In this document: piece after piece, positions 20,698-37,633 of the stretch
Position numbering within the stretch: position 1 is the stretch's first letter
How the letters are laid out: each line of letters begins with the position of its first letter
From: Deltaproteobacteria bacterium UBA4796
Lineage (GTDB): Bacteria; Desulfobacterota; Syntrophorhabdia; Syntrophorhabdales; Syntrophorhabdaceae
Assembly (NCBI GenBank): GCA_002402795.1
Contig: DHGO01000123.1
Span: 1 to 56,608, forward strand
DNA length: 56,608 nt
Direction of reading: 5' to 3'
The notes under the pieces: model-generated
Told to the model about the DNA's origin: nothing
Database searches by the model: none
What the model saw: the letters and a program-made list of their open reading frames with translations, nothing else
Position numbers and translations under genes: made by a program

Positions 20698-20703
20698 TAT
20701 AAC

Positions 20704-20770
20704 TTAACACCTAATTTGAGAAAAAGTAACAGGAGTTTGAGAAAAAGTTAACAGGTAGTTTGAGAAATTT
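20704..20770. promoter_or_regulatory. right-end transposase-binding repeats (three contiguous sites)
   Basis: TTAACACCTAATTTGAGAAAAAG / TAACAGGAGTTTGAGAAAAAG / TTAACAGGTAGTTTGAGAAATTT in direct tandem. The innermost site overlaps the RT stop codon. Confidence 0.7.
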
Positions 20771-21803
20771 TACCGCTCAAAATTAGGTATTTCAAACACA
20801 GATTTGCTCCTCTTTTTACATTAGCATGTTGACAGTGTCCCAACCATGATGATAATGAGCATCTTACATCGGAAAGATTAATTAATCCCTCTTTATATGC
20901 CTTTGAAAACCTTTTAAAACGCTTTGTGGCGCGAATAAGACTGCTCTTTCGTAAAAGTATATTATTATGCCATATTCTATAGCCCAGAAAATCAATACCT
21001 CGACTCACAGGGTAGATATCGCTCTTAGGGTTAAGGTTGAGCTTAAGATGACTGTTCAGAAACAGAGATATTTCTCTTTTAAGACGGTGCAGTTCTTTAT
21101 GATCTCCATTAAATATAAGAAAATCATCCATATATCTGATGTAATATTTCACCTTTAAAACATGTTTTATGTATTGATCCAGCTCATTCAAATAAAGATT
21201 GGCGCCCCACTGGGAGATTAGATTACCAATGGGCATGTTCTTTGATTCAGGATCGTCCCTATCAAACGTATTATTAAAAACAATCCGATTAAAGAGCCAC
21301 ATGGTTTCTTTACATTTTATTTTTTGAGCGATGATCCGTAGCATTATATGATGGTTAATGGAAGGAAAAAATTTTGTTACATCGCATTTTAAACAATAGA
21401 CCTTCCCCCATTCTTGCTGTGACCTTCTCAGAAATTCAACGGTTCTCGTGACTCCCGCATGGGTACCCTTATTTATTCTACATGCGTATGAGTCATAAAT
21501 AAAGAAGCTATTCCAAATTGGCTCCACGATGTTCATGATTGCATGATGGACTATCCGGTCTTTAATTGGTGATACATAAATAATCCTTTTTTTCGGCTCG
21601 TAGAGGGTAAATGTCCGGTATGGACTCGGGGTATAAGTTTTATTAATCAGCTCCCCTTGAAGGTTAATTAAGTTTTCTTCCAGGGCATCCTTATATTGAA
21701 GGATATCTCCGTAGTACCGTCTGCCCTTTGAAACCTTATAAAGGGCAAGGTTAAGGTTCTCTAAATCACAAATCTTTTCATATAGGTTACCATATCTCCT
21801 CAT
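20748..21803 (-). CDS. DGR reverse transcriptase
   Basis: 351 aa with a YMDD box (YIRYMDDFLIF) and the DGR-type motif PIGNLISQWGANLY ([LIV]GxxxSQ). Lies directly downstream of the TR. Confidence 0.9.
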   Translation of the reverse strand: MRRYGNLYEKICDLENLNLALYKVSKGRRYYGDILQYKDALEENLINLQGELINKTYTPSPYRTFTLYEPKKRIIYVSPIKDRIVHHAIMNIVEPIWNSFFIYDSYACRINKGTHAGVTRTVEFLRRSQQEWGKVYCLKCDVTKFFPSINHHIMLRIIAQKIKCKETMWLFNRIVFNNTFDRDDPESKNMPIGNLISQWGANLYLNELDQYIKHVLKVKYYIRYMDDFLIFNGDHKELHRLKREISLFLNSHLKLNLNPKSDIYPVSRGIDFLGYRIWHNNILLRKSSLIRATKRFKRFSKAYKEGLINLSDVRCSLSSWLGHCQHANVKRGANLCLKYLILSGKISQTTC

Positions 21804-21965
21804 TATATTGCCGCCGCTCCAGATGGCTTTCGGGACTCCCTACTAACCACCTGGGCAGCATTTTTATTTTTGCCGATCCATGCGGATGCGACAAGGATCA
21901 TAACCTGTACAGATTATGGACTGTCTTAATAGGCAATGCCTATTAAGCTTCTCCCGATATCTGTG

Positions 21966-22066
21966 CTGCGCGGGCACCGATGTTCCAGTTGTAGTTCGAC
22001 GGCGTGTTGTTCAAGTTCAACGCGCCAGGGCATTGAGCACCGTTGTTACAGTTGCCCCCGCGAAGG
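21966..22066 (-). repeat. DGR template repeat (TR)
   Basis: 101 bp, 87/101 identical to 23496-23596. The coding strand holds 24 adenines, including 9 AAC codons when read in the VR frame. Lies 8 bp downstream of the avd stop. Confidence 0.9.
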
Positions 22067-22073
22067 TTTCCAG

Positions 22074-22418
22074 CTATGACCCTGAAATCTTCTTGATCCA
22101 TCCACCCACCATCTTGCCCAGCTCGATAACCATTTTCTCCCAGTTTTCGTATTTATTAAAGGGGAGAAATCCCAGTTCCTTTGCCAGGCGTATCTTTGTC
22201 TTTAAGTGAGCGATCTCGATATCCAAATCCTGTAGGGTTGTTTTTTTAAAATATTTCTTTTGCGACCTGATTATCAGCTTATCGATCTCGTACATTGTGA
22301 GGCGTATCTCTGCCGATAGGGTATGCCGCTCACTTTTTGGGAACTGCTTTAGGCAGATATACCCATATTTCATCATGTCTTCATGTTTTTGTTTAACAAT
22401 AAGCGGTTCCATACCCAT
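22074..22418 (-). CDS. avd: Avd-like DGR accessory protein (four-helix-bundle family)
   Basis: 114 aa, helical and basic, with the FPKSERHTLSAEIR motif typical of the Avd / 23S-rRNA-IVS protein family. Located between target and TR. Confidence 0.75.
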   Translation of the reverse strand: MGMEPLIVKQKHEDMMKYGYICLKQFPKSERHTLSAEIRLTMYEIDKLIIRSQKKYFKKTTLQDLDIEIAHLKTKIRLAKELGFLPFNKYENWEKMVIELGKMVGGWIKKISGS

Positions 22419-22456
22419 TGATTATTAGCACCGACAAAAGAGAGCTGTCAAGTTAT

Positions 22457-23236
22457 TTAAGTATTTTTTGGGGTAAAATTCATGATCAGGAGTTCGGTAG
22501 CTCTGACCTTATTGCTTGCACCCGCGCATGAATATGTAGTAGTGACCTCTTCGATGGCAAATTCTTTGTAAGTCTCCCTGATTTCAGGTGTATCGTTAAT
22601 GGACATGATAAATTTACCCTGAATGGCATTTAGAATATTTCTAAGCTTAGCAAAATCATCTCTATGAAAAATTCCCTTACCATACCAATCCTCGCGTTTA
22701 TAATAGGGAGGGTCGAGGTAGAAAAAGGTGTGTGAGCGGTCAAAACGTTCAATAAATTTTTCATAACGCATATTTTCTATGTAGACCCTGGAGAGTCTTA
22801 GATGTGCCGCTGAAAGTTCCTCTTCAACCCGGAGAAGATTGAAATTCGAACGTCTGGTGGTGTTAATAGAAAACGAGAAGTTGTCGATCCGGCTGGAATA
22901 GCCATTTTTGAGCAAGTAGTAAAACCTTACGGCTTTTTGGATGTCAGTGAGCGAGTCAGGATTTTCGACTTTAAAGCGTTCAAATTCATCTCTGGCCACG
23001 AGGATCCACTTTAAGTAACGAATGAACTCCTCAAGATGATTTTTTATTACCCGATAGAGGGTAACCAGATTAGAATTAATGTCATTAATGGTCTCAATTT
23101 CCGATTCTTCCTTTTTGAAGAGGAGCCAGGCAGCGCCGGCAAAAACTTCACAATAGCATGTGTGCTGCGGCACAAGCGGGATAATTTTGTTTGCCAGTAA
23201 TGATTTCCCCCCGAGATAACTTAAAAAACTTTTCAT
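22457..23236 (-). CDS. dam: Dam-family N6-adenine DNA methyltransferase
   Basis: Starts MKSFLSYLGGKSLLANKI... with AAGGAGGG upstream. EVFAGAAWL (AdoMet motif I) and the DPPY catalytic motif. The 40-codon track extension to 23356 is unlikely. Confidence 0.8.
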   Translation of the reverse strand: MKSFLSYLGGKSLLANKIIPLVPQHTCYCEVFAGAAWLLFKKEESEIETINDINSNLVTLYRVIKNHLEEFIRYLKWILVARDEFERFKVENPDSLTDIQKAVRFYYLLKNGYSSRIDNFSFSINTTRRSNFNLLRVEEELSAAHLRLSRVYIENMRYEKFIERFDRSHTFFYLDPPYYKREDWYGKGIFHRDDFAKLRNILNAIQGKFIMSINDTPEIRETYKEFAIEEVTTTYSCAGASNKVRATELLIMNFTPKNT

Positions 23237-23433
23237 GGAAAACCCTCCTTCGTTACATTGATTTTGTGGGATTTTCTTGCTACACTTTAGCTGCCCAGAT
23301 CTCGGTCGGGGAATAGGCGGCGGATGGTAGCGGGTTATCCCGTCATCTCGTAGCATGGGATGGTTAAGGGAGGGCTTTCTCCCTGAACTACTGTCCGCTG
23401 GTCTTTAACTAATCTATATCATGTATGCTCACC

Positions 23434-23465
23434 CCTGACCCCCACCCTTTCGGGCGGGGGTCAGG
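23434..23465 (-). promoter_or_regulatory. GC-rich hairpin downstream of VR (DGR target-recognition hairpin and/or terminator)
   Basis: CCTGACCCCCACCC-TTTC-GGGCGGGGGTCAGG: 13 bp plus one A.C mismatch. The loop is GAAA on the coding strand. Lies 17 nt after the target stop codon. Confidence 0.7.
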
Positions 23466-23481
23466 TTTCAGTTACCAGGGC

Positions 23482-24786
23482 TCAGGGTACAAGTACTGCG
23501 CGGGCACCGATGTACCAGGCGTAGTCCGAGGGCGCGTTGATCAAGGCCAACGCGCCAGGGCACCGAGCACCGGAGTCACAGTTGCCCCCGCGAAGGGATA
23601 TTCTTTCATCGGTAGCGACATACCAAAACCCCTGACCATCGAATCCTCCTTGACCAGAGGGCACAGTGCTTGCAGGGATTCCATGTTTTTTTAGCAGGTT
23701 TTCAGTGCGTAGAGATGCCACGCTTTGCCCTGATGTAACACCATCGACAGTCAGTCCTGTATCTACGAATGATGCATGTCCGTATCCATCTGTTGGATCT
23801 GTAAAAGGATTTACTGTTTTCAAGGCAGTATATATACCATTGGCATTCAATCTCAATCCGTCAGCAAATTCCCATCGGTTTCCACAAAAATCGCTTACAG
23901 GAATTTCCCATAGTTTGCTCCCCCCACCTGCAAGGGAGCCACCCCAAGCAGCGTCCAGCGTGGGGTCTTTTAGCCCTATATCGTTAGGGTCAAGATGCCA
24001 CTGCGGGATATGGTTAGAGGCATTGTAACCATTGGTGTTGCCTCTCAATAGCCAACGATTGATACGTGTCCACAGCCACAACTCATTCCAGTGTGCGTCA
24101 GTCATCAATCCACCTTTGCCTGCCCAACCTTCATAAGCCGCTCCTTGTCCTAAATGCAAAAATCCACCTTTATCAAAACGGGACTTTAGATATTGTCTGA
24201 AATGAGCGATTGTCTGGGCTACCCTCGGCACTTTCAAGGGCTGGCTAATATAACATTTTCTTCCTGTGTCACTCCCATTGCATACATCCCCAGCAGCTAT
24301 CATTGTAGCATTACTGCTTGAGCATAGATACATGTCAACCCAATACCCTCCCATCTCATTCTCCCATAAGACAGAAGAGTGTTCCCAATGAGTAGGAGTA
24401 TCACCTGTAGCTATAAAGCACTGTCCAGAGGCATTTTGTGGCGCACCTACATTTGTGAAGTCATCATCAGCTTTAAGTTCCTCAATCCTATAATGCCTGC
24501 CAACAGTAAGTGCCCCTGATGTCAAGCGTAGCCTTTTTCCAAGAACCTCATAATCTGTGTTTTCTGTCCATCCAGTTTGAATCTGTTCAGGATGGAAGAA
24601 GTCCCCTACCGTGCCTGATGGAGTAGCAACTTTTGCATTATCAGTCAATGCCCTACAAGCAGTGAATGGGGGTATCCACTTCATGTAGGAATAGAAGCCG
24701 TCTACGTCAACGAAAATACCGATAAAGGTATCAAACTTACTCATCTGCTCTCTTATCCATAAGCTATTTCTTTTAACTATTGCCAT
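23482..24786 (-). CDS. DGR target: receptor-binding / tail-fibre protein with C-terminal variable region
   Basis: 434 aa. The C-terminus LRGGNCDSGARCPGALALINAPSDYAWYIGARAVLVP is encoded by VR. The gene lies at the distal end of the tail module. Confidence 0.8.
   Translation of the reverse strand: MAIVKRNSLWIREQMSKFDTFIGIFVDVDGFYSYMKWIPPFTACRALTDNAKVATPSGTVGDFFHPEQIQTGWTENTDYEVLGKRLRLTSGALTVGRHYRIEELKADDDFTNVGAPQNASGQCFIATGDTPTHWEHSSVLWENEMGGYWVDMYLCSSSNATMIAAGDVCNGSDTGRKCYISQPLKVPRVAQTIAHFRQYLKSRFDKGGFLHLGQGAAYEGWAGKGGLMTDAHWNELWLWTRINRWLLRGNTNGYNASNHIPQWHLDPNDIGLKDPTLDAAWGGSLAGGGSKLWEIPVSDFCGNRWEFADGLRLNANGIYTALKTVNPFTDPTDGYGHASFVDTGLTVDGVTSGQSVASLRTENLLKKHGIPASTVPSGQGGFDGQGFWYVATDERISLRGGNCDSGARCPGALALINAPSDYAWYIGARAVLVP
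23496..23596 (-). repeat. DGR variable repeat (VR)
   Basis: Lies at the 3' end of the target gene, ending 14 nt before its stop. Differs from TR at 14 positions, 13 of which are TR adenines. Confidence 0.9.
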
Positions 24787-24788
24787 GT

Positions 24789-25049
24789 CTATGCCTCCTT
24801 ATATTCTTCTAAATCAATCAAAACTGCCTCTATTTGATTTTCAGGTATGCAAAAAGACAGCCAATCTTCGTTTGCATACTCGCCTATAAATTTATCTGTT
24901 TTTTTATACTCTTCAGGCACGAGGCATACCTTTATGGGCTGGCATACTTTCAGTTCAAAAAATCCATTCAATTCAGAATCCCTCGTAATAACAGGAGCGT
25001 CTTGATTACATTTCTTCAATTTTTCTATCAAGTCTTTTACCTTCATCAT
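24789..25049 (-). CDS. hypothetical phage protein
   Basis: 86-aa ORF tightly packed between the tail genes and the DGR target. Confidence 0.5.
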   Translation of the reverse strand: MMKVKDLIEKLKKCNQDAPVITRDSELNGFFELKVCQPIKVCLVPEEYKKTDKFIGEYANEDWLSFCIPENQIEAVLIDLEEYKEA

Positions 25050-25357
25050 GCCTCCTTTGGTAAATCAAAATATCTTATTTTTATTTTATTTAAATCCAAC
25101 GGTTCAGGTTCGCTTCTAATCTCTTCACCTGATTTTTCATTAATGTTAATATCAGCTTTAGGATAAGGGATTTCCATCTCGCATAGATGCCAATAACAGT
25201 CATACATGGGGTTCACAACCAGTTTTAAATCATTATCAAGATATATCCGCACCATCTGACCTTGATATAACGATAAGTCAATTTCCTGTGCAGAAACTAT
25301 GCCCTTCTCACATTCAAATCCATCAAGTTGCAATTTAGAGCCACTTAATTTAAGCAT
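25046..25357 (-). CDS. hypothetical phage protein
   Basis: 103-aa ORF with a 4-nt overlap with the downstream ORF. Confidence 0.5.
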   Translation of the reverse strand: MLKLSGSKLQLDGFECEKGIVSAQEIDLSLYQGQMVRIYLDNDLKLVVNPMYDCYWHLCEMEIPYPKADININEKSGEEIRSEPEPLDLNKIKIRYFDLPKEA

Positions 25358-25368
25358 TTATACCCCCT

Positions 25369-25827
25369 TTATGCTATGTTGGATAGCTCAATATCTGCTG
25401 TAATACCACCGATTCCGCTGTTATAGATGACACATGTATTTGCAGATTTGACGACAGATATTTCTCCAATCATACCAAGTTTCATATCTTTAGGCATTAC
25501 CTTGATGAGATAGTTCGTATCCCCCTTATTATGTGTTACAGTTGCACCATTCTGCCCATCGAGCGTTACCGCCCCGGTCATAAACACTTCTCCATTACTT
25601 CCAGGCACTGCCGAGGGCCATGTAGTCTTGCCTACTCCTCCTAAAAATATCTGCATAAATGCGCCCTGTGCATATGCCTTTGAAGGACTACCTACACGGC
25701 CCGTATTATGTGATGATGGGTCCTGGATGTTTTGTGTCTGATGCGCATTAGCATTCTTATCATGGATATTATTAATGCGTTCATCAAACAGGACATATAA
25801 AACTGTGTTAGGAAATATATCAGGCAT
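25369..25827 (-). CDS. hypothetical tail-associated protein
   Basis: 152-aa ORF directly after the tail-tip gene. Confidence 0.5.
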   Translation of the reverse strand: MPDIFPNTVLYVLFDERINNIHDKNANAHQTQNIQDPSSHNTGRVGSPSKAYAQGAFMQIFLGGVGKTTWPSAVPGSNGEVFMTGAVTLDGQNGATVTHNKGDTNYLIKVMPKDMKLGMIGEISVVKSANTCVIYNSGIGGITADIELSNIA

Positions 25828-25839
25828 AATTACCTCCTT

Positions 25840-28800
25840 TTAGGAATATACTTCATCACGATATACTATTCCTCTGATTGTTGAGAACATCGTCTCAGCG
25901 CTTCGTTTAATGCTTTTTGTCCTGTATATCGTGTTGATTTCGCTCGTTTTAGCGAGGATATAATTGCATTCATAAGGTTTATTATTATCTATTGTTAACC
26001 CTGTCGGTTTTGGAACTTCCGTAATGCTGTAACCCGTAAGCACACCTTCCCAGGTATAGACAACCCCATCAGCCCCCCATACACGAAGGCGGTATGTAAC
26101 ACCGCTTTCTATTTCAATCGATTTGTCGAGTATAACCTTATCTCCTGCATCATTTGTGCCCAGTATCCTTCCACTGAAAGCAAAATCATTAACCTGTGAT
26201 TGGAAGGCAAAACAATTGCCAACTTCAACCTCAATGGATTCACTGCCTGCGTCAAATTCTATCTCATGGTCAATATAGCGGTTATACTTAAGGAGTCGTC
26301 GCAAATATCTTCTTGCCTCTGATTCACGTGTAATGCCCACAAGCGGAGAGAGGGTTTTCACGATTGGATATTCTCCGGATTGTATATCTTCTTCACTTAT
26401 TGTTTTTTCATCATAATTCAAATTTTCATCCAGATAGGCAACCACAAGCACATTTGCCCTGTCCCGTTGCGGTATTGGATAGACATGGACATTTTTGGTG
26501 TTCCCTTCACCGAATACCTGGGCAGGTGAGCTAACCGGCTTATCTATAATGATTTTATATTTATCTCCATATGGGATAATCTGAGCTGATGCCTGCTGTA
26601 CTATTCTTGTTACCAACCCCCATAAATCTTCGCTAAAATCAATCACTGCATCGAATTTATGGCGCTGTTCGCCATCTACAAGTTCATTGCAATCTGCATC
26701 AAGTTCCGCGAATGATTCCCAATCAATATGATTTGAGGTAATCCTGCCATGAGAGCCTTCAATTAATACTTTTGCGATTGTCCAGGCATAGCTATCCGTG
26801 GGCGCATAGTTTTCATAAAAGACCATAACCTGCGTATCCGCTGGTATTTCTTCCGTTGACTGCAAATATAACCTTGTTCTTGCGCCGACGATCTCCCAGG
26901 TGTGAACACGGTTGAAATATTTTGTGAGCAGCCTATCGGGCTGTGCAAAACCAGGCGAATCCATTCGCACAAGCCAATAGTAAAAAATTGACGGTGCGGA
27001 TGGGTTAGGAAGTTGTGCATCGATGAGAATCTTTCTCATACCGTCCACAAGGATATTATTAATCGTATTACCTGTGCCTGTTACTATACCTTCATCGGCA
27101 TAGACCGTTGTATCATATCTATCCCCTACTGGTGGGACTGAAAGGGGCTGTCCTATGCCGATGGCAGTGATTTTAGGACGTGAACCTGACAATCTATCTG
27201 TTGCCATAGCGGAGACGCCAATCAGGGCGTGATTTGGATATGCAAGTTCATCGGTTATGATTTCAGAATAAGTCTTCAGGAATATGTCATCACACCAATA
27301 AATGGATGTCTGGTCTACGGTTGTGCGCCATATTCTAAAGTTATATGTATCTTCTTCTAAGTCCAACAATTCAATTATCTTTGTTACCGCCTCAAGTGGA
27401 TTTGAGGCATTGCCGCTAATGGTGACTGATTGCGCCTGTACTGAGAGATAGAGAGTATCTATTGCGAAGGCGTTAATATTATGTGTACCATACGGATTCG
27501 TACAACAATCATTTGCCCAATCAATTCGCACTTGATATTTGCCGGTCGCAAGTCCTGATATGACAATATCCCATGAACCGTCTGCCAAATATCCATAGTA
27601 ACAAGCGCCAACCTCATAGGTCCCATGCAATATCCAGGAAGATGCTCCTTCTCTGCGGTAATAGACTCTATAGCGAGACCACGTGAAGGTTGTAGTCTCG
27701 TCAATTGTATGATAACTAATCAAACGAAATCTGATTGCATTTGTATCTATATTTGTGTCAAAGCCCCTCCAGATTCTTCCTGAAAATCCTGATGTATTAT
27801 CTGTGACATTCCCAGCTTGCCATGAAAAATCACCCAGGACGAGATTCCATGTCTCTTCAGTATGTTTTTTATATTGAATACGAAAGACAACATCTCTCGC
27901 CTGCGGAGAACTGCCTACTATTTCGTATAGACCACGAGGCGCAGATATAACTAATCTGCAACCTGTGATGTCTTTTTTCGATGTGAATGCAATATAATTT
28001 GTGGGGTTATCTGCGCTGGCATCATATTGGACTTTAGCGCCCGATAAATATTGAGTATATATTTTTCTGAATGTATCGATAATGGTCTGCTCATCATCTC
28101 CAGGGCGCAAAGCAACCTGTACCTGGCCATAATATTGACTTTCTGTATCATTAATACAAACATCGTCAAATCTTGTAATGCGATGCGCTACAGGACATAT
28201 AAGCATATTCAGATATTCATTATTGTTTGCATCGTACGATACATGCTCGGATATAATCTGTCCGCCCACTTTCATTGTCCCGAATAGCCAGGGCTTTGCA
28301 AGTCCAGGTCGATGGTCGTTAACAACGCCATCCCAGGTATAATGGCGCGAATCCTTGAGGTTGTTATCCCAGCCTGAGAGGGAAGGCATTTCAGGGGATG
28401 GTATAGGAAAAAGCGAATCAACAACCATGCTGCCAACAATCGATATTGCCATAGATGCGCCTATGGCGCCTGCAAGCGCCCAGCCTCCAAGGCTTGCAAG
28501 GTTTGCCCATCCTGCAATGCCTGCACCAGCCAGCATGGGTGGAAAAACAAAGGCAGCAACAGCAGTAAGAAGTCCGCCAATTGCCCTGCCAACACTTCCA
28601 CCGCCTGCTATAGGAAGTATTTCTCCTCCGTCTGCCTTATATCGATAAAAAGAGATTATTACATGATCATATTTTTTTAGTTTTGATAAGACTACTCCTT
28701 TATTTTCATCACATCGCAAAAGCTGCATATCAGGCGTAATTACTCCAAGATGCAACCCTATATTAGAGCGCATCAGGGCAACCGCATATGGTTCAGGATT

Positions 28801-29022
28801 AACAATCTTTTCCCAGTTTGCTCCTTCCTTTTGAACCAATTCGGCAGATAATTCCATTTCATTTCTTATTGGAAGGGTAATATTAATGCCTTTATAGACC
28901 TCACGGACAAGACCATAGCAGTTCAAGCCTTTTGAGCGGGCCTGGCCGCCCAAGGCATAAGATATGCCTATGAGATTTGCCCAATCTTTATGTGTTTCGG
29001 CTATGATTTCACGTCTATACAT
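25840..29022 (-). CDS. tail-tip protein: NlpC/P60 domain + Gly/Ala-rich hydrophobic linker + gpJ-like host-specificity region
   Basis: N-terminus has GLNCYGLV (Cys) and LHLGVI (His) of the NlpC/P60 type. Residues around 140-205 are a GGGSVGRAIGG...AGAIGASMAI hydrophobic stretch. The rest has FGTMKVGGQII, as in the gpJ N-terminus. 1060 aa. Confidence 0.6.
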   Translation of the reverse strand: MYRREIIAETHKDWANLIGISYALGGQARSKGLNCYGLVREVYKGINITLPIRNEMELSAELVQKEGANWEKIVNPEPYAVALMRSNIGLHLGVITPDMQLLRCDENKGVVLSKLKKYDHVIISFYRYKADGGEILPIAGGGSVGRAIGGLLTAVAAFVFPPMLAGAGIAGWANLASLGGWALAGAIGASMAISIVGSMVVDSLFPIPSPEMPSLSGWDNNLKDSRHYTWDGVVNDHRPGLAKPWLFGTMKVGGQIISEHVSYDANNNEYLNMLICPVAHRITRFDDVCINDTESQYYGQVQVALRPGDDEQTIIDTFRKIYTQYLSGAKVQYDASADNPTNYIAFTSKKDITGCRLVISAPRGLYEIVGSSPQARDVVFRIQYKKHTEETWNLVLGDFSWQAGNVTDNTSGFSGRIWRGFDTNIDTNAIRFRLISYHTIDETTTFTWSRYRVYYRREGASSWILHGTYEVGACYYGYLADGSWDIVISGLATGKYQVRIDWANDCCTNPYGTHNINAFAIDTLYLSVQAQSVTISGNASNPLEAVTKIIELLDLEEDTYNFRIWRTTVDQTSIYWCDDIFLKTYSEIITDELAYPNHALIGVSAMATDRLSGSRPKITAIGIGQPLSVPPVGDRYDTTVYADEGIVTGTGNTINNILVDGMRKILIDAQLPNPSAPSIFYYWLVRMDSPGFAQPDRLLTKYFNRVHTWEIVGARTRLYLQSTEEIPADTQVMVFYENYAPTDSYAWTIAKVLIEGSHGRITSNHIDWESFAELDADCNELVDGEQRHKFDAVIDFSEDLWGLVTRIVQQASAQIIPYGDKYKIIIDKPVSSPAQVFGEGNTKNVHVYPIPQRDRANVLVVAYLDENLNYDEKTISEEDIQSGEYPIVKTLSPLVGITRESEARRYLRRLLKYNRYIDHEIEFDAGSESIEVEVGNCFAFQSQVNDFAFSGRILGTNDAGDKVILDKSIEIESGVTYRLRVWGADGVVYTWEGVLTGYSITEVPKPTGLTIDNNKPYECNYILAKTSEINTIYRTKSIKRSAETMFSTIRGIVYRDEVYS

Positions 29023-29650
29023 AGCCCACGCCTCCCGGTATGCCGGGAAAAGAGTTCAATCTCAAGACATTCCCGTGCCTTTTACAGTCCACTCTATTAT
29101 GATTGCATGTATCCGGACTGCCTGCTACAAATCCTACGGGCTGAATATATGTGCCGTCTGACTTTTGAATCCAGCAGCCCTTGCCTTTATAGCGGTTCCA
29201 GCAGAAATCAGTAATGAATTTTTCATGCAATAGCTTTGCAAGAAATGGATTGAATATACCGACGCTCAGGGCAATTGACTGTTCTGAAATATCATCTATC
29301 CCTATGATCTCAAGGGTCTCTTCATAAATTATTGTATCGTTCTCAATGCTGTATTGTTTGAAGGTTACAGAGTATCCTTCTACCTCGCGGGAGGTTTTGA
29401 ATTTATCGGAAAGCATTCCTTCTATGTTCGAGATTATCAGCCTCATTGTTGAAACCTGGCCGCTTGAATCTTCCCGAAGCTCCTCAAGCATCACAGGGAA
29501 AGGTATATATATATTGCCATTGACTTCAATTTCTTCAGGGTTTGGACTAAGATAATATGTGCCATCATCAAGGGTGATTTCAAATAATGCAACCCATGTG
29601 GATGGCTTATTGAATTTGAGGTGCTCATTGTCTGGAATTGTGCGTGGCAT
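29015..29650 (-). CDS. minor tail protein, lambda gpL / BR0599-like
   Basis: 211 aa with a Cys-rich C-terminus (CWNRYKGKGCW...DTCNHNRVDCKRHGN) ending in FPGIPG. Position after the gpM-like gene. Confidence 0.55.
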   Translation of the reverse strand: MPRTIPDNEHLKFNKPSTWVALFEITLDDGTYYLSPNPEEIEVNGNIYIPFPVMLEELREDSSGQVSTMRLIISNIEGMLSDKFKTSREVEGYSVTFKQYSIENDTIIYEETLEIIGIDDISEQSIALSVGIFNPFLAKLLHEKFITDFCWNRYKGKGCWIQKSDGTYIQPVGFVAGSPDTCNHNRVDCKRHGNVLRLNSFPGIPGGVGYV

Positions 29651-29662
29651 ATTTTTCCTTTT

Positions 29663-30082
29663 TTAATCCGTTGGAGGTGTCCCAACGACTTCTGAACCCA
29701 TGGATTCAAAGGTAAGGCTGCATGTCCATAGGAAACCAGGATGTTTGGGGTCCTCTGCCATTTCATCACTGGTTATAAGACACAGGATGCCAATCGGATA
29801 TATCTTACCATCTGGTTTTGGTTTCATAGATGTAGGAAAAATAAAATAGAAAGTCTCTGATTTATACTCATCGATAAAGGCGGCCAGAAGGTTCTTTTCT
29901 GCATCTGTAAGCATCTCAAATTCTATCTGTATTTTATATTGTACTGTTGGGGATTGCTCTCTTTGCTGTATATAGCCCGCTGGCGTGCGAAGCCTTACCT
30001 TAGGCATAACCTTCGTAACTTTATACCCACCAAATGGAATTATGGGCAATTCATATTCTATATTATCAAGCACGCCGCTCAT
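29663..30082 (-). CDS. minor/distal tail protein (gpM-like position)
   Basis: 139 aa, immediately downstream of the tape-measure gene with a 4-nt overlap. Confidence 0.45.
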   Translation of the reverse strand: MSGVLDNIEYELPIIPFGGYKVTKVMPKVRLRTPAGYIQQREQSPTVQYKIQIEFEMLTDAEKNLLAAFIDEYKSETFYFIFPTSMKPKPDGKIYPIGILCLITSDEMAEDPKHPGFLWTCSLTFESMGSEVVGTPPTD

Positions 30083-32667
30083 GATTTGCCTCCTGTTTGT
30101 AGAAAATTCCTAAATTGTTTATCCTCTTTGACCTTACGAACAACGGTAGATATGACAAGCTGGTCAAGGTCAAACTTGACATCAGGATTTTCATCTATCT
30201 CAAGCCTTGTGCCTGATTCATTCTTTAATTCAACCTTCACATTCATAGGGCTTGCTCCACGTGCCATGAGACCTAAAGCCTTCATCTGGTTCTTGGTAAA
30301 GATTGATTCGCCTTTTTGCAGGATGGCTGCATATTCATCCGAGGCCAGGCCAGTATGATGGCGGGGGGCATGAGCAAAGGCAAAATTAGAAACAATCCTA
30401 TAGAAAGTTGGATTATCATGGCCTATTACACCACCTTTGTGATGAGCGGGGGCAAGAAATGAAAAGGTCTTTCCAAAACTTTCATACGCAGCGGCATTGG
30501 ATGCACCTGTTGCACCTGTTGCGCCAAAAAGGCCGCTTATACCGCCTATAATCGCACCTGATACCTGCTGACCTAATGCGCTTGCTATCGCCCTTCGGAC
30601 ACTTTTTGAAAAACTTTCTATATAATCAGATAGGTCTTTCAATTTTGCATCAAATGCATCAAAGAAAAAATCAGTAAATGCCTGTTCCATAGCCTCTGCG
30701 GTTTCTTTCGCAATCTCTTTTGCGGTTTGGAATGTTGAATTCAAGTTATAGAGAAATTCGTTGAACCCCCTTAAGGCGCCTTCGGCAAATGTACCTGTCA
30801 GCTCTGTCAGGGTTAGATTGAGTTCGTTAAGATGAGTATTTATATCACTGATCTTATCCTCTGCCTGAATCCTTGCTGTAATGTCTCCAATCTCTATCGC
30901 ACGATCCCTTATTGATTCGTAATATGTAAGAAGCTTTTGATATTCTGCAATACGACCTTTTGTAATGTCCGTTTTTGATAAAAACATCTCCTTTTCAGCC
31001 ATGTCAAGGATGGCAAGCCGGCGTCTGGATTCAGATTCAAGAATGGCGAGATTATAGTCCTCATTAATCTTTTCTCTTTCGCGAGCGCCTTTTTCTTCTA
31101 TTTCCGTAAGGCGATTTTGGTATTCCTCATATGACATTTCAGTTGTTTGCCATATCTCAAGAAGTTCTTGCGTCAATTTTGTTTCTTCCTGAATGCTTTT
31201 TTGAATTCTATTCAGTCTTTCATCAGCTGTAGATGTTTCGAGTTCGTTCGCAAGCGCTGTATATCTTTTCTCTCCTTCCTCCCGTTTTTTTAAATATTCT
31301 TCATATTCCTTCCACTGTTTTTCCCATTGAACCTGTTCTGTCATCTTTTGTAACCAGGTATTAATTTCTGATATTGTGCCAGGAATATTTTTAAACTTTT
31401 GTTTCATATCCTCTGCTTTATTTGTAATTTCAAGCACTTTCTGATCAAATTCATCAAGCCCTGCTTTTGAAATATCAGTTTGAAGATCGCGCCTGGTTTT
31501 TCCCCACTCTTCACCAAGCTTCTTCAGGTTGTTTTTCACTGCGTCAATATCTTTTTTCCCAGTAGGCGCTATAGTGTTTGTAAGCCTGGCAGTCTGGCCT
31601 GCCGCACTCTGGATAGCACGCGTGCCCATATCGCTTAAATATTGCTCCGAGGCTTTGTATCGGGCTTCAAGCGTTTTGTTCAATTCATCCATCCGCTTGC
31701 CAAACGATGTGAAGGGACCGCCCGAAACAACATAACCTATGGTCGTCAGCGTCCCTCCTACCTTATCAAGAACCATACTGAACGCTACCAATATTGCAAT
31801 CGCACCTCTGACTGAATCTGCAAGCTCAAATGCCCACTCTGATGAAACTCCCGACCTGGACATGTCTGCAAGTTGCCTATCCAGTACCTTTAGACTTTCC
31901 GTAAATTCACTCACCACAACCCCTAACGCAGGGGAGATCATGTCGCCTAATTTTAGTTTTACCTCTTCGATATATCTTGGAAGCGATGTAAGCTGTTTCC
32001 CTGTTGTCTCCATAGCGGCTTCATATGCGCCCTGTATATCCTTGCCCCTTTCCAGGACAGCATTCATGCGTATCTGAGCCTTTTCATTCTCTGTCAGAGC
32101 TTCTGTAGTCTTCCCCATCTGTTCAGCAGCTCTGGCATAAGCATTTTCAAAATTGACATTGATGCCTATGGTTCGGAGCATTTCTACTTGAGCAGATTGG
32201 ATGCCGTATACCATGCGCTCTAAGGCTTCAGAAGAGTTAACGTTGCCTATCACAGCCGCGTCCTGGGCAACACGAGCCAGTTCAGATGCCTTTGTAAGGT
32301 CAAGGTGCGCCTGTGCCATGCGAATAATGCTTTCCCTCGATTCCTGTGTCGTAATCCCCATTTTTCGGACTTCTTCAGAAAAGGCTGCAACCTCTTCCTG
32401 CGAATATCCTGCATTTCTTCCCACAACACCCATGACAATACCAAGGGTTTCTACTCTTGCGGATAGTGTGGCTATATCCAATGCTTTATAGACAGCAGCC
32501 ATTGCGCTTGCTATTGTGGCTGTCAATCCGAGCCAATGGCTTTTTATGCTGGAGACAACGCTGGCATTTACACCAGAAAGCCTTTGCATTTCGCCAGAGA
32601 CGCTTTGGAATGCCTGTTTAGTGTTGTTAATTGCGGTAATTGTAAGCTGTACTTTATTGTCAGCCAT
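30079..32667 (-). CDS. tail tape-measure protein
   Basis: 862 aa, long helical/coiled-coil protein with Gly-rich hydrophobic segments. Canonical position after the chaperone pair. Confidence 0.8.
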   Translation of the reverse strand: MADNKVQLTITAINNTKQAFQSVSGEMQRLSGVNASVVSSIKSHWLGLTATIASAMAAVYKALDIATLSARVETLGIVMGVVGRNAGYSQEEVAAFSEEVRKMGITTQESRESIIRMAQAHLDLTKASELARVAQDAAVIGNVNSSEALERMVYGIQSAQVEMLRTIGINVNFENAYARAAEQMGKTTEALTENEKAQIRMNAVLERGKDIQGAYEAAMETTGKQLTSLPRYIEEVKLKLGDMISPALGVVVSEFTESLKVLDRQLADMSRSGVSSEWAFELADSVRGAIAILVAFSMVLDKVGGTLTTIGYVVSGGPFTSFGKRMDELNKTLEARYKASEQYLSDMGTRAIQSAAGQTARLTNTIAPTGKKDIDAVKNNLKKLGEEWGKTRRDLQTDISKAGLDEFDQKVLEITNKAEDMKQKFKNIPGTISEINTWLQKMTEQVQWEKQWKEYEEYLKKREEGEKRYTALANELETSTADERLNRIQKSIQEETKLTQELLEIWQTTEMSYEEYQNRLTEIEEKGAREREKINEDYNLAILESESRRRLAILDMAEKEMFLSKTDITKGRIAEYQKLLTYYESIRDRAIEIGDITARIQAEDKISDINTHLNELNLTLTELTGTFAEGALRGFNEFLYNLNSTFQTAKEIAKETAEAMEQAFTDFFFDAFDAKLKDLSDYIESFSKSVRRAIASALGQQVSGAIIGGISGLFGATGATGASNAAAYESFGKTFSFLAPAHHKGGVIGHDNPTFYRIVSNFAFAHAPRHHTGLASDEYAAILQKGESIFTKNQMKALGLMARGASPMNVKVELKNESGTRLEIDENPDVKFDLDQLVISTVVRKVKEDKQFRNFLQTGGKS

Positions 32668-33273
32668 GCGTTATCCTGTCCTCACATTCCTTTCGGCATA
32701 TTGCACACACATCCGGATGGTGGCATCTTTTATGCTTTTCCTTCTGTCCTTTATCTTCCTTCACAAAAAACCCTATCACTCCCTCTCTGAATATTACATC
32801 CCGTCTTCTGTACTCGACATATTTTTCGCATTCTCTGAAGGTATATCCCCATTCGATTTCGTCTCTTTTTGTGATGTCTCCTCCTGCGAGAAAACAGACG
32901 AACTCATCGATGATTGAATCGCCTGACTCTGTATCTTTACGATTGCCCCGGTCAGCCTCTCCAAAACTGAGGCTATCGGGTTCAAGTCGAAAAAATCTTC
33001 TACTATCTGAATTGCAGTTTCTATATTGACCGCTTCTTCAAACTCTTCGGACAGGGCATTGATGTCTTTATCTTTTAGCCTCATCCCCTCTGGGGTCAAG
33101 ATAATTGCAAACACGCCAGGAAGTTCTTCTGCAAGAAGGGAAACTAATTCTGGTATATCAATATTGCCTGGAATTTTTAGATGACCTATAGCATGTGTTA
33201 ACTGTTTGATCTGTCCTATGACAAGAGGCTTCAGTATCCATCTCTTTCCATTAATTTCATATACATATTTCAT
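32660..33273 (-). CDS. tail assembly chaperone -1 frameshift product (gpGT-like)
   Basis: The -1 frame is open from the slippery site (32995-32989) to a TGA at 32662-32660, overlapping the tape-measure ATG at 32667. It exactly fills the 126-nt gap after the gpG-like stop. My translation of the extension: FFRLEPDSLSFGEADRGNRKDTESGDSIIDEFVCFLAGGDITKRDEIEWGYTFRECEKYVEYRRRDVIFREGVIGFFVKEDKGQKEKHKRCHHPDVCAICRKECEDRITHG. Confidence 0.6.
32794..33273 (-). CDS. tail assembly chaperone (gpG-like)
   Basis: 159 aa and acidic, between the major tail and tape-measure genes. Contains the slippery heptamer T_TTT_TTC at codons 93-95. Confidence 0.7.
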   Translation of the reverse strand: MKYVYEINGKRWILKPLVIGQIKQLTHAIGHLKIPGNIDIPELVSLLAEELPGVFAIILTPEGMRLKDKDINALSEEFEEAVNIETAIQIVEDFFDLNPIASVLERLTGAIVKIQSQAIQSSMSSSVFSQEETSQKETKSNGDIPSENAKNMSSTEDGM

Positions 33274-33289
33274 AGTCCCTCCGAATTTC

Positions 33290-34210
33290 TTATGTAAATA
33301 CTATTGAAAGTTCATCATCTCCTGCATTTCTATTGAGCTGGCAGGTAATTCCGAGATTTCTTAGCCCTTCTTTGACATCATCAGAAATAGCTGTATATTG
33401 AACTTTAGGCGCTGTGATGGTGCAGACGTTTCCTGCCGAGCCCGTTAAAGCAAGGCTGAGGGCGCCTTCATTGCCTGAACGCAGCTTCCCATAGAAATCA
33501 TATGTAGCCACAAGCACAGCTTCAGGGTCTATTGTCATGGATGGTTTTCTATTTGTGATGACTGCGCTCTTATAACCGCTTGCGCTATTTATGTCTTTTC
33601 TCAGGGCCACTGCATTATTCATATTAATTTCGAGGGCGCCGATTAAGGCGGAATAGGAATCAATCGTCAATGTTGCAGCAAGAAAGGCAATGGGCTTTGT
33701 GGATTCATAGGTTACATCTGCAAGCATAGTTACATCTGTAACAGAGAAATCAGCGCCTGTGAATTCAAAATGCAGCCATCCAGGGGCGCCATCTTCTAAT
33801 TTAAGGCTTACGTTCCCCCTCGCCCCCCATATCTTTTTCATAATCCCGTCTTCATACGATGCGATGGTAATAGAACTTATGCTTGTGGAGGCAGGTTTAT
33901 ATGTAACTGATGTGTTTGCCGAAACGGTTTCGCCAAATCCACATGCCTTCAATAACGCGCCCAATGCCGGGGCTGTGCCTTTAGTTCCTGAGCCTTTAAG
34001 CTCAACATCAAATTCCATCTTTGCAGACCTTGCGCCAGGTATGGGTGCCCAGGGGGATAAGGATGCTGATACATTTGGCCTTTCTCCCGCTGGAGTATCT
34101 GGCGTAAATTTAAAATTAGCCGCAAGAAAGGCTTCTGTTTTGGTAAGGGCCTCTGCCTGTCCTTCGGTTCCTTCAATTTTTGCTGCTAATTGTGTTCTCG
34201 CCTCTATCAT
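33290..34210 (-). CDS. major tail (tube) protein
   Basis: 306 aa, in the position preceding the chaperone/tape-measure genes. Strong RBS AAAAGGAGGTAACAA. Confidence 0.6.
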   Translation of the reverse strand: MIEARTQLAAKIEGTEGQAEALTKTEAFLAANFKFTPDTPAGERPNVSASLSPWAPIPGARSAKMEFDVELKGSGTKGTAPALGALLKACGFGETVSANTSVTYKPASTSISSITIASYEDGIMKKIWGARGNVSLKLEDGAPGWLHFEFTGADFSVTDVTMLADVTYESTKPIAFLAATLTIDSYSALIGALEINMNNAVALRKDINSASGYKSAVITNRKPSMTIDPEAVLVATYDFYGKLRSGNEGALSLALTGSAGNVCTITAPKVQYTAISDDVKEGLRNLGITCQLNRNAGDDELSIVFT

Positions 34211-34331
34211 TTGTTACCTCCTTTTTATCCTGTTTTTTTGTTTTTGCCTTGTAATTCTTATATTCCTCTTCTGTCATCTCTTTACCATCAACGATATATT
34301 TTGTTTCGCCTGTATTCCATCTATCTTCCAT
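34173..34331 (-). CDS. possible small protein (52 aa), below the ORF-track cutoff
   Basis: ATG 34331 is preceded by AAGGAGGTAAC. Reads MEDRWNTGETKYIVDGKEMTEEEYKNYKAKTKKQDKKEVTNDRGENTISSKN. The 3' end overlaps the major tail gene start. Confidence 0.4.
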   Translation of the reverse strand: MEDRWNTGETKYIVDGKEMTEEEYKNYKAKTKKQDKKEVTNDRGENTISSKN

Positions 34332-34355
34332 GTTACCTCCTTTTTCTCCTTACTT

Positions 34356-34793
34356 TTAATCAGGGACAGGCACACTAAGATAGCGCCTTGTCTGTATCTT
34401 GATGCTGTATGTAATTAATCCATTGTCATAATCCACAAAATCTCTGGACATACAGGTCCATGGTTCAATATCATCTATACCTAATCTCTTGCCATTTATC
34501 GCCTGCTCAACTGCTTCAAGCAAGACATAGGAATCACGGGCTGCCTGCTCTTCTGGCCTTAGAGATAGATTGCGGCACATAATGACTATCTCAAAATTAA
34601 GAGTATAAACAGGGCGGGGCTTTGACCTTGTGTTACTGTCTCCAACAAAATATACGAGAGCGCACGGATACGTAAGGGGAGTTGGTGGACCTTTTCTTCC
34701 CAGAGAGCCTACATAAGTAAACAAATTTATCCCATCTTCCTTCAATGCTTCAATGGTTGAAATTAATTTATCTTCTATGTCTGCTATGTTCAT
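34356..34793 (-). CDS. Mu gp37-like (DUF1834-type) head-tail/tail completion protein
   Basis: 145 aa. The N-terminus IADIEDKLISTIEALK resembles the gp37 family as I recall it. Position just upstream of the tail tube gene. Confidence 0.45.
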   Translation of the reverse strand: MNIADIEDKLISTIEALKEDGINLFTYVGSLGRKGPPTPLTYPCALVYFVGDSNTRSKPRPVYTLNFEIVIMCRNLSLRPEEQAARDSYVLLEAVEQAINGKRLGIDDIEPWTCMSRDFVDYDNGLITYSIKIQTRRYLSVPVPD

Positions 34794-34814
34794 TCAGCCC
34801 CCTTGTTACCTGTG

Positions 34815-35066
34815 TTACCTGTTCTCAAGTATCAGCATATATTGCATAAGCTTTAGCATGTCTTCGTATACCATACAGCACAAGCTCCGCTCTTTCTCAT
34901 CTACTTCGGCAGTAAATCCGCAGTGCCAGCCATATTCAAGGGTTGGTCTTTCTAATTTCGCCCCACTTCCCCTCAGGCTTGCGCACCCTGAAAGGAGCAT
35001 TAGGGTTATCAGTAAGACTATTAAGCTCCTTTGTAAGTTCAATGAGCCTCGCCTCCATTTCTTCAT
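34815..35066 (-). CDS. o-spanin (outer-membrane lipoprotein), overlapped architecture
   Basis: From the internal Met: MKKWRRGSLNLQRSLIVLLITLMLLSGC, a signal peptide plus lipobox LSGC. Starts inside the i-spanin gene in another frame and ends beyond it. Confidence 0.65.
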   Translation of the reverse strand: MKKWRRGSLNLQRSLIVLLITLMLLSGCASLRGSGAKLERPTLEYGWHCGFTAEVDEKERSLCCMVYEDMLKLMQYMLILENR

Positions 35067-35202
35067 ATATCTCCTCTTCTTTCTTCTTTGCGCCTGTCTC
35101 TTTGCCTTTTTTGTAGATAAAGAAGATGAAGACAGCAATCAAGATAACAATACCGAAACAACCTGATATTTTCGCTATCCCTAAGAGGCCTGCAATGTCC
35201 AT
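34936..35202 (-). CDS. i-spanin (N-terminal TM + coiled coil)
   Basis: 88 aa with a hydrophobic N-terminus (GCFGIVILIAVFIFFI) and then a charged helical region. Follows the holin. Confidence 0.6.
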   Translation of the reverse strand: MDIAGLLGIAKISGCFGIVILIAVFIFFIYKKGKETGAKKKEEEIYEEMEARLIELTKELNSLTDNPNAPFRVRKPEGKWGEIRKTNP

Positions 35203-35204
35203 GA

Positions 35205-35405
35205 TTACTTTACGCCTTCTATCTTCTTGACCGCCCTAACCCTTCCATAGATTGCAATGCCTGCGCCGATAAGGGCAATGATGTCGTTGACGAAACCTTC
35301 TGTGTCGCCTCCTATATCGTAGCCTGCAATTTTCAAGGCTGTGGCTGCAATTGCTATGATTGCGCCCCAGATTGTCTTGCTTGTTAATAGCCCTTTAGTT
35401 TCCAT
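35205..35405 (-). CDS. holin-like small membrane protein
   Basis: 66 aa with two hydrophobic helices and a basic C-terminus. Lies between the endolysin and the spanins. Confidence 0.55.
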   Translation of the reverse strand: METKGLLTSKTIWGAIIAIAATALKIAGYDIGGDTEGFVNDIIALIGAGIAIYGRVRAVKKIEGVK

Positions 35406-35882: not shown

Positions 35883-35916
35883 TTTTTGCCCTTTTTCAAA
35901 ATCCTTAAATGGTCAT

Positions 35917-36609: not shown

Positions 36610-36623
36610 TTACGCCATTCTCC

Positions 36624-37613: not shown

Positions 37614-37633
37614 ATTTTGTTACCTCCTTTTTT

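Follow-up and report, generated by a model that had tools for sequence, protein, structure and literature searches.

The window, that is, the whole 56,608-nt stretch of DNA analysed here, contains a complete Mu-like transposable prophage whose right-end module we read as a diversity-generating retroelement (DGR; Table 1). The prophage is bounded by two direct copies of AGTGG, a target duplication of 5 bp (20693-20697 and 56584-56588), has three end repeats of 21-22 nt, the first of which includes the stop codon of the reverse transcriptase (RT), and encodes MuA (Mu-transpos_C and HTH_Tnp_Mu_1), a MuB-like ATPase (AAA_22/TniB-like), Gam, GemA, a Mu portal protein, Mu F, gp36 and an S24 repressor together with tail genes. 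The features by which a Mu-like phage is recognised, namely a MuA-type transposase with ATPase, terminal repeats and the 5-bp duplication, are thus all present. Homology with the related locus L001 stops at the prophage boundary, and the phage group to which this prophage belongs is located beside tRNA genes.

Table 1. Features of the DGR module and of the prophage that contains it.
Feature	Position	Strand	Remarks
Mu-like transposable prophage	20698..56583	-	complete; DGR as right-end module
DGR reverse transcriptase	20748..21803	-	351 aa; PF00078; YMDD, IGNLISQ
Structured spacer RNA between TR and RT	21814..21965	-	Rfam RF02921 (RT-14), 48.6 bits (gathering score 48.1)
Template repeat (TR)	21966..22066	-	101 nt; 24 adenines; starts 7 nt past the avd stop codon
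avd, accessory variability determinant	22074..22418	-	114 aa; PF22296 bAvd, E 5.6e-30; pI 9.6
Promoter-like sequence upstream of avd (inferred)	22421..22451	-	TTGACA, 18-19-nt spacer, TAATAAT
Dam-family (D12 class) N6-adenine DNA methyltransferase gene	22457..23236	-	259 aa; PF02086, E 8.6e-32; no canonical DGR part
Putative target-recognition hairpin/cruciform	23434..23465	-	14-bp GC-rich stem (one G-T pair), GAAA loop, 30 nt past VR
DGR target gene	23482..24786	-	434 aa; TaqVP/Mtd-like; last gene of the tail module; VR at C-terminus
Variable repeat (VR)	23496..23596	-	encodes LRGGNCDSGARCPGALALINAPSDYAWYIGARA; ends 4 codons short of the target stop
GC-rich 3' end of VR, IMH-like boundary	23496..23513	-	last 18 nt, identical in TR (alignment)

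An earlier note on this DNA had described two 101-bp repeats with 14 mismatches, 13 of them at adenines of TR, and a base-by-base comparison reproduced both the coordinates and the counts; according to a repeat search the pair can be extended to 104 nt (21963-22066 and 23493-23596). The mismatches at TR adenines comprise seven A>G, three A>T and three A>C changes, and none of the 14 falls on a VR adenine, hence the asymmetry between TR and VR has a direction. Given the adenine content of TR, 13 or more of 14 mismatches would fall on A with a hypergeometric probability of 3.8e-9. The remaining mismatch is a G>C change from CCG in TR to CCC in VR that leaves Pro in both, as had also been stated. 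At this site the TR of L001 carries C like the VR of the window, and the TR of the window has probably mutated after the last homing event, which would account for the lone mismatch outside the adenines. Read in the frame of the target gene, TR gives LRGGNCNNGAQCPGALNLNNTPSNYNWNIGARA with the nine AAC codons reported before; the 24 adenines sit in these codons and in CAA, ACG, TAC, ATC and GCA, and about 1.2e13 protein variants are possible from them, with stop codons never being created. The GC-rich 3' end that the note had found common to both repeats was seen again as the identical 18 nt, beyond which the next 16 nt agree with TR at 8 positions only. The flank on the VR side, AGTACTTGTnCCCTGAG, is kept in L001, L004 and L013. 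Within the window a single VR matches TR, and no second one was found.

Both RT motifs listed in the earlier note are present in the translation (Table 1). The best PDB sequence match of the RT is 8ub7 (E 2.5e-58, with 7e-24 for the next RT class, retron or group II), which we take to be the bRT of BPP-1, its residue numbering being in agreement with that of the published R74 and I181. In an alignment to 8ub7 the RT has conserved counterparts of both residues, and its PIGNLISQ conforms to the DGR signature [I/V/L]GxxxSQ (residues and signature as given in PMC7826257). A repeat pair was found in 113 of 168 RT relatives, and in 87 of these 113 at least 80% of the mismatches are at A. On sequence grounds the RT appears to group with that of the Bordetella DGR and with those relatives whose own TR/VR pairs are A-biased. 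The contrary explanation, a plain duplication diverged by random drift beside an RT of unrelated origin, be it of the group II intron, retron or defence type, has next to no probability. Its only points are the existence of a repeat and some NCBIfam similarity of the RT to group II, Drt and retron models, but all of these matches lie far below the cut-offs, the closest PDB relative is the 8ub7 RT, the same adenine pattern recurs in dozens of relatives, and Avd, hairpin and spacer RNA are all present beside the repeats. Drift of a plain duplication was rejected, since the bias towards adenines of the RT-proximal copy and its direction refute it.

The 114-aa protein that the note had called Avd-like, suggesting HMM searches as a check, is Avd according to both Pfam and NCBIfam models (the equivalog NF033474 DivGenRetAVD scores 106.4 bits, its cut-off being 80). 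The promoter-like sequence upstream of its gene was read by eye and is absent from the list of a strict consensus scan; a CTTGAC box is conserved at the same site upstream of avd in L001 and L004. With a score just above threshold, the spacer of the window matches the RT-14 motif, which also lies directly upstream of the RT in six relatives at 54-70 bits (L004, L015, L016, L020, L021 and L095), and compensatory changes occur in 20 of the 22 predicted pairs of this RNA. By analogy, the RT-14 spacer would be the positional counterpart of the Sp region of BPP-1, the source of the cis-primer; inspection identified neither the priming adenosine nor the TR:spacer duplex, which was counted against the best explanation. 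The motif RT-10 is found at the same place in BPP-1, and other RT motifs have been predicted to serve DGRs (Weinberg et al., PMC5737381). The BPP-1 mechanism needs RNA of the avd 3' end together with TR and Sp (bioRxiv 10.1101/2023.10.23.563531).

The GC hairpin with a GAAA loop that had been noted after VR was recovered, and the 76-nt stretch that contains it folds as DNA with -20 kcal/mol in total. Hairpins of DGRs follow rules of a GRNA loop and a distance of 4-34 bp from VR (Guo et al., 2011; PMC3240598); the present hairpin obeys the loop rule and its offset lies inside that range. As to a terminator, there is no T-run behind the stem and a terminator scan did not call one here. The hairpins of relatives have 7-8-bp stems of other sequence with GAAA or GATA loops. 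With 14 bp the stem of the window exceeds the 7-10 bp described for phage DGRs, an observation that was counted against the best explanation.

The canonical order target-VR-hairpin-avd-TR-RT given in the earlier note did not hold, as the methyltransferase gene separates the hairpin from avd. Its product scores 120.8 bits with TIGR00571 dam, above the cut-off of 114.85, contains the catalytic DPPY motif (FYLDPPYY) as well as EVFAGAAW, and shares 47-49% identity with phage adenine methylases of the ordinary kind; along the prophage GATC is under-represented, with 49 sites observed and 134 expected. Relative to L004 and L013 the gene lies within an insertion of about 0.96 kb. This insertion of roughly 1 kb parts VR from the core, which was likewise counted against the best explanation. 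The cassette has the architecture that Wu et al. (2018; PMC5758913) named 'B1-X'; these authors found that spacing of target and core by nested ORFs is tolerated, and they judged such ORFs, unconserved among DGRs, to be no accessory genes. The nested methyltransferase is most likely ordinary phage anti-restriction or epigenetic cargo without a part in mutagenesis. It is improbable that it serves this DGR lineage as a functional accessory, for example one that marks parental DNA or blunts repair of the cDNA:VR heteroduplex, even though a homologous methyltransferase (64-97% identity) occupies the same position, about 250 nt past the target and before avd, in at least 14 related loci, among them cassettes with an RT only 58-59% identical. 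The arrangement is missing from other loci including close relatives; L004 and L242, with RTs 82-88% identical, lack the gene yet have A-specific TR/VR pairs, and among about 160 other RT relatives a Dam-like gene is nearby in one only, where it lies downstream of the RT. Moreover, the protein resembles common orphan phage methylases, the adenines acted on by DGR mutagenesis are those of RNA rather than DNA, and the judgement of Wu et al. on nested ORFs also argues against an accessory role.

The target protein matches no Pfam or NCBIfam family; 93 homologues were found, and the hypervariable columns of their alignments are the positions of the AAC codons of TR. Modelling of the target, which the note had proposed as a check for a C-type-lectin fold, yielded a lectin/FGE fold: the AlphaFold2 model (pLDDT 94.8) has TaqVP of Thermus aquaticus (PDB 5vf4) as its best Foldseek match (E 1.5e-14, TM about 0.5 over about 385 columns), followed by Mtd, PvdO and TvpA. 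TaqVP, 17% identical in sequence, is also the only PDB sequence-profile match of the target. Based on this model, the target is predicted to be a C-type-lectin/FGE-fold protein that matches the DGR variable proteins TaqVP, Mtd and TvpA. Its gene follows that of a J-like tail protein and is co-oriented with the tail operon, and fold and gene position together suggest a receptor-binding role. It is rather unlikely that the diversified protein is instead another lectin-like protein of the virion or expressed by the lysogen, directed at a secondary ligand or a non-host surface. Such a protein would fit the lack of a family, the weak PHROG matches confined to the C-terminus, the separate 1060-aa J-like central tail fibre protein encoded upstream and the fact that TaqVP, which the model matches best in structure, belongs to a cellular DGR and not to one of a phage. 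However, the target gene is the last member of the tail operon in the same orientation, the viral structural matches of the model are FGE-like, tail-collar and tail-fibre proteins, and in L005 the target homologue comes after an Mtd_N/collagen tail-fibre gene.

The identical target protein with the same VR is encoded on 7 of 7 public contigs that carry the element, and three loci, each from another source, show 100% DNA identity over stretches of up to 7.3 kb that include VR. Assemblies represent consensus only. Three collections were scanned for the pattern and returned no VR variants of this element. In a cluster of homologues at 90% identity, the 11 members have 11 different VRs in an almost invariant backbone, and L001, L004, L008, L013 and L175 carry TR/VR pairs of their own with mismatches almost only at TR adenines. 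One may ask whether the DGR acted in the past and the copy is now static, being intact but silent, or very rarely firing, in a resident prophage. We consider this unlikely: the single VR common to all seven contigs is in line with it, as is the non-adenine mismatch, which suggests drift of TR since the last homing event. On the other hand, RT, Avd, TR and the target ORF are intact, as are the hairpin and the structure of the spacer RNA; the VRs of close relatives differ and are A-derived; homing of DGRs is as a rule a rare event that consensus assemblies do not reveal; and the seven contigs are 100% identical elsewhere too and therefore probably stem from one clone that was sampled repeatedly. 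Intactness and the relatives suggest that this copy is functional and may be currently active.

Very probably, then, the region is a complete DGR of the avd-TR-RT type and the last module of the Mu-like prophage. The claim of completeness in the earlier note is borne out in that every defining component is present and the TR/VR asymmetry is both adenine-specific and directional. The element is no new system but a well-formed case of one already known. By analogy with BPP-1, a transcript would run from the 3' end of avd through TR and the structured RT-14 spacer; a complex of RT and Avd would bind it, and cDNA synthesis would be self-primed from the spacer. TR would be copied faithfully save opposite adenines, at which the RT may add any nucleotide, and the resulting cDNA would replace VR at the 3' end of the target gene, marked by the GC-rich repeat end shared with TR and by the GAAA-loop hairpin just past VR. 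All changes encoded by the TR adenines are predicted to land on the ligand-binding face of the C-type-lectin-fold tail protein, and the likely function, judging from the model, is to alter what the phage tail binds and therefore its host range.

Compared with the BPP-1 DGR (mtd-avd-TR-brt), the present element has the same avd-TR-spacer-RT core, an AAC-rich TR, the GC-rich end shared by the repeats, VR at the 3' end of a gene for a tail protein of predicted C-type-lectin fold, a GAAA-loop GC hairpin after VR, and an RT with the IGxxxSQ signature and counterparts of R74 and I181. Unlike in BPP-1, VR and avd are separated by the nested gene of a Dam-family methyltransferase, the spacer RNA is RT-14 instead of RT-10, the hairpin stem has 14 bp instead of 8 bp, and the carrier is a transposable phage of the Mu-like kind. 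The target resembles TaqVP more closely than Mtd, to which it is only distantly similar (Foldseek E about 1e-3); TaqVP comes from a bacterial chromosome context whereas the target ends a phage tail operon. The Bacteroides Hankyphage is likewise a Mu-like transposable temperate phage with a DGR and 5-bp repeats flanking its insertions (PMC6199706), but its host belongs to another phylum, it integrates at random sites in contrast to the tRNA-adjacent sites of the present phage group, and no nested methyltransferase is reported for it. With the B1-X cassettes (Wu et al., 2018; PMC5758913) the element shares the avd-TR-RT core, the upstream target and an unrelated ORF nested between them; here this ORF encodes a Dam-family methyltransferase found again in many related cassettes, whereas those of Wu et al. 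are unconserved. In the phage collection a single match was found at the DNA level, to the DGR of Vibrio phage VHML / VP585, a phage of a different type and without other DNA similarity, whose TR region is 78% identical over 90 nt; this match reflects the common CLec VR scaffold.

The minus strand of the window carries a genuine, complete DGR: an avd-TR-RT cassette, a CLec-type target upstream of it, and a methyltransferase gene nested between the two. An earlier note made from the sequence alone had placed the parts in the order target-VR-(hairpin)-avd-TR-RT, which is wrong since the methyltransferase gene lies between the hairpin and avd, but the rest of its description proved accurate: the TR and VR coordinates were reproduced both by a minus-strand reading of 20500-25100 and by an independent repeat search, the GC hairpin with a GAAA loop is present after VR, and the proposed 14 mismatches, 13 of them at TR adenines and one synonymous in a proline codon, were borne out base by base.

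Features of the DGR and its prophage (window coordinates unless another locus is named; L-numbers denote related loci fetched for comparison)
Feature	Position	Size or structure	Remark
RT	20748-21803		matches RVT_1
Spacer RNA	21814-21965	152 nt, TR to RT start	Rfam RT-14, 48.6 against a gathering score of 48.1
TR	21966-22066	101 nt	
avd	22074-22418	114 aa	NCBIfam DGR Avd equivalog, 106 bits against 80
Methyltransferase ORF	22457-23236	259 aa	good ribosome-binding site; between hairpin and avd
Hairpin	23434-23465	14-bp GC-rich stem, GAAA loop	30 nt past VR
VR	23496-23596	101 nt	
Complete Mu-like prophage	20698-56583		right end 20698, left end 56583
tRNA-proximal right ends	20561-20700; L001 14040-14196; L004 9240-9462; L013 6100-6312; L175 10215-10406		also L200, L208, L242

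The mismatches at adenines of the RT-proximal copy comprise 7 A>G, 3 A>T and 3 A>C changes, none falls at an adenine of the distal copy (VR), and the remaining one is G>C (CCG to CCC). With 24 adenines among 101 bases, the hypergeometric probability that 13 or more of the 14 mismatches fall at A is 3.8e-9. The repeat search lengthens both copies by 3 nt, to 104 nt; a third, 15-nt match at 25534-25548 was dismissed as a short chance match. A TR pattern with N at every adenine, with which a second VR was sought in the window, found TR and VR alone and had no site in shuffles. In the target frame TR holds nine AAC codons together with CAA, ACG, TAC, ATC and GCA, and its adenines permit 4^24 = 2.8e14 variants at the DNA level and about 1.2e13 at the protein level, all free of stop codons. 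We are confident that this VR was written by a DGR. At the single non-adenine site, the TR of the sister phage L001 has the base of the window's VR, which suggests that the window's TR has undergone a point change since the last homing event, and makes the pair a worked case of a non-adenine mismatch traceable to TR drift.

The checks with RT and Avd profiles that had been proposed were positive for both proteins, Avd being basic as well. Among solved structures the RT is closest to 8ub7 (E 2.5e-58, residues 2-329 aligned), with its PIGNLISQ opposite PIGSLTSQ, and retron-type and group II intron RTs follow far behind at about 1e-23; the NCBIfam group II, retron and Drt RT models all score far under their cut-offs. 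A literature search for entry 8UB7 found nothing. The counterparts of R74 and I181 of bRT, the RT of the Bordetella phage BPP-1, are conserved; in bRT both residues promote adenine mutagenesis, and I181 starts the DGR signature [I/V/L]GxxxSQ (PMC7826257). The RT-14 RNA also adjoins the RT on its upstream side in six relatives (54-70 bits), and an alignment of nine sequences contains compensatory changes in 20 of 22 predicted spacer-RNA pairs. BPP-1 has RT-10 at the equivalent position, and other RT motifs were guessed to serve other DGRs (Weinberg et al., PMC5737381); the orphan Rfam motif RT-14 is now placed between TR and RT, the position of the DGR spacer RNA. The cis-primer of BPP-1 comes from the spacer at this position; a TR:spacer priming duplex sought by eye gave candidates of 4-6 bp at most, and no priming site is claimed here.

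For the 434-aa target no Pfam or NCBIfam family was found, PHROGs matches are weak and confined to the C-terminus, and its 93 homologues are all unnamed. Their alignment has a well-conserved backbone and a C-terminal pattern, LRGGxCxxGAxCPGALxLxxAPSxxxWxxGARAVLVP, whose variable columns are exactly the TR Asn codons. When the target was modelled, as the earlier note had advised for its C-terminus, AlphaFold2 reached a pLDDT of 94.8 (built on 91 sequences); the best PDB match was TaqVP, the DGR variable protein of Thermus aquaticus (E 1.5e-14), also the sole match of the sequence profile, and further top matches were Mtd, the FGE-like PvdO and Treponema TvpA, with FGE-like, tail-collar and tail-fibre proteins among viral matches. 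The gene ends the tail operon, behind a tape-measure gene, a J-like 1060-aa protein and three small ORFs. A family of more than 90 proteins that lacks a Pfam model can thus be labelled as TaqVP/CLec-type DGR variable proteins. In the homologue P0031, on a 133-kb contig, an Asn-rich VR-like C-terminus (NFYNASSNYNWNIGARAAQ...) runs into sequence like the TR 3' flank, which looks as if VR and TR had collapsed, through assembly or an avd-deleting recombination. A VR-like C-terminus with no avd or RT within 4-6 kb downstream occurs at L173 (P0003, an 82% identical target), L005/L006 and L202/L203; lysis genes follow the target homologue of L173, and the methyltransferase alone those of L202 and L203. 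These loci may be orphan targets or belong to remote DGRs.

The hairpin obeys the rules of Guo et al., which ask for a GC-rich stem and a 4-nt GRNA loop 4-34 bp from VR (PMC3240598). A role as terminator was rejected, as it has no T-run and is absent from the terminator scan calls, and an Rfam match at the same place is noise. Hairpins of relatives have 7-8-bp stems of other sequence and GAAA or GATA loops. In the close relative L004 (Avd 97%, RT 88% identical) the post-VR hairpin at 7330-7355 has the loop TTTC, the complement of the usual GAAA/GRNA; homing of BPP-1 was nearly abolished when GAAA was swapped for CTTT, yet the VR of L004 differs from its own TR at 9 adenines.

The 259-aa ORF encodes a D12-class, Dam-family N6-adenine DNA methyltransferase (PF02086, E 8.6e-32; TIGR00571 above cut-off; DPPY motif). 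Alignment with L004 and L013, relatives without the gene, places it within an insertion of about 0.96 kb that falls precisely between the hairpin and the conserved TTGAC box found upstream of avd, leaving the cis elements on either side untouched. Across 74 metagenomic loci that encode target homologues, surveyed along with the loci fetched earlier, the gene is patchily distributed: at least 14 loci have a methyltransferase homologue (64-97% identity) about 250 nt past the target, including a lineage with an RT about 58-59% identical to the window's, while the cassettes of L004 and L242 (RT 82-88% identical) are without it. Among about 160 more distant RT relatives a Dam-like gene is nearby in one, downstream of the RT, and the enzyme resembles ordinary orphan phage methylases (47-49% identity). 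Cassettes in which an ORF sits between target and core ('X' architectures) are known, and such ORFs were judged non-accessory (Wu et al., PMC5758913); we read the methyltransferase as cargo settled in this slot. That it is instead a long-retained working partner of the DGR in this phage group, which could time cassette expression or help to retain mutagenised cDNA by protecting or marking DNA, would explain the retention of the slot in cassettes with RTs down to 58% identity, but we hold this to be improbable. The gene is an example of a recurrent methyltransferase inside a DGR cassette. GATC is strongly depleted in the prophage despite the encoded Dam-family enzyme (49 sites where base composition predicts about 134) and less so in the host flank (59 against 78).

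The exact target protein of the window was found on 7 contigs. Three of these loci were fetched, from JGI, ENA and Logan data, and match the window at 100% DNA identity, VR included; no VR heterogeneity is visible at consensus level. Scans for an exact VR pattern in which each of the 24 TR-adenine positions was set to N returned no VR variants from metagenome_contigs, viral_contigs or genome_contigs; since the metagenome_contigs scan missed the element-bearing JGI contig L010, the absence of matches reflects collection content and says nothing on heterogeneity. L001 (87% identical) has a different VR, with 11 differences from its own TR, all at TR adenines; the TR/VR pairs of the related loci L004, L008, L013 and L175 behave likewise, and one homologue cluster at 90% identity comprises 11 members, no two with the same VR, and only two columns vary elsewhere. 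These comparisons of sequences speak for a working system in this family, and we think it reasonably probable that the window's DGR is still active. The reading of contig L002 (ena:ERZ27315071:k141_990830) as a VR variant of the window's prophage was rejected: the contig is a perfect hybrid, 100% L001 on one side and 100% window on the other, with the switch inside the methyltransferase gene (window 22806-23055), where the two phages are 98-99% alike and where L011, a 2.3-kb window-type contig of the same sample, also ends. Its TR/VR pairing is false (7 non-adenine mismatches), and most likely two co-resident prophages were assembled into one chimeric contig, for which reason it was kept out of the evidence for VR turnover. 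Between L001 and the window the target gene is the most diverged segment, beyond VR alone (75-83% nucleotide identity; segments compared, window 24303-24802 against 22056-23305), identity is 92-98% from the methyltransferase gene through avd to TR and falls to about 76% in the 3' two-thirds of the RT, so the right-end module is mosaic.

The prophage encodes an S24 repressor, MuA transposase, AAA+ partner, Gam and GemA, as well as terminase, Mu portal, Mu F, gp36, an endolysin and a siphovirus-type tail. Its termini (20693-20767 and 56431-56588) are imperfect inverted repeats, TATAACTTAACACC... / ...CTGTAAACTTATA, and a motif of about 21-22 nt, TTTCTCAAAyTnnnTGTTAAs, is repeated in tandem, three times on the right and twice on the left; a 5-bp direct duplication, AGTGG, flanks the element. 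The DGR is the terminal module, because the RT stop codon falls within the first right-end repeat. MAGs of Syntrophales, Smithella and 'Deltaproteobacteria' contain relatives. Hankyphage (PMC6199706) is an earlier instance of a Mu-like phage with a DGR, and the present case, clean, fully annotated and from a Mu-like prophage associated with an uncultured anaerobe, leaves the view of DGRs unchanged and serves for annotation and as a reconstitution candidate.

The adjacent tRNA-Leu was ruled out as an integrase att site by the Mu-type ends, transposase and 5-bp duplication. In 8 of the 9 independent insertions whose flanks could be read, the Mu-like phages with this DGR family sit directly downstream of a tRNA gene: the right end lies 43-160 nt beyond the 3' end of a host tRNA gene whose strand is always opposite to that of the RT (Leu-taa, three Leu-caa, two Thr-cgt, Phe-gaa and one truncated by the contig end), across three phage end sequence types and differing host neighbourhoods. 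This differs from the near-random insertion reported for Hankyphage, normal for Mu-type transposition, and suggests tRNA-proximal target choice or strong survivorship; it is a more unusual observation than the DGR and merits its own study. A perfect 11-nt tandem repeat, TTATTTCGCAG x 4.4, lies at 55409-55456, directly upstream of the gene for the S24-peptidase repressor (55455-56150), and shares 2 nt with the start codon of that gene; it is a possible operator array for the Mu-like early region. An 8-nt unit (AGGCACAG, complement CCTyTGTG) forms short tandem arrays in the host flank of the window (11077-11143), twice within the prophage (47684-47745, 50708-50765) and in the host flank of L001 (about 14230-14290).
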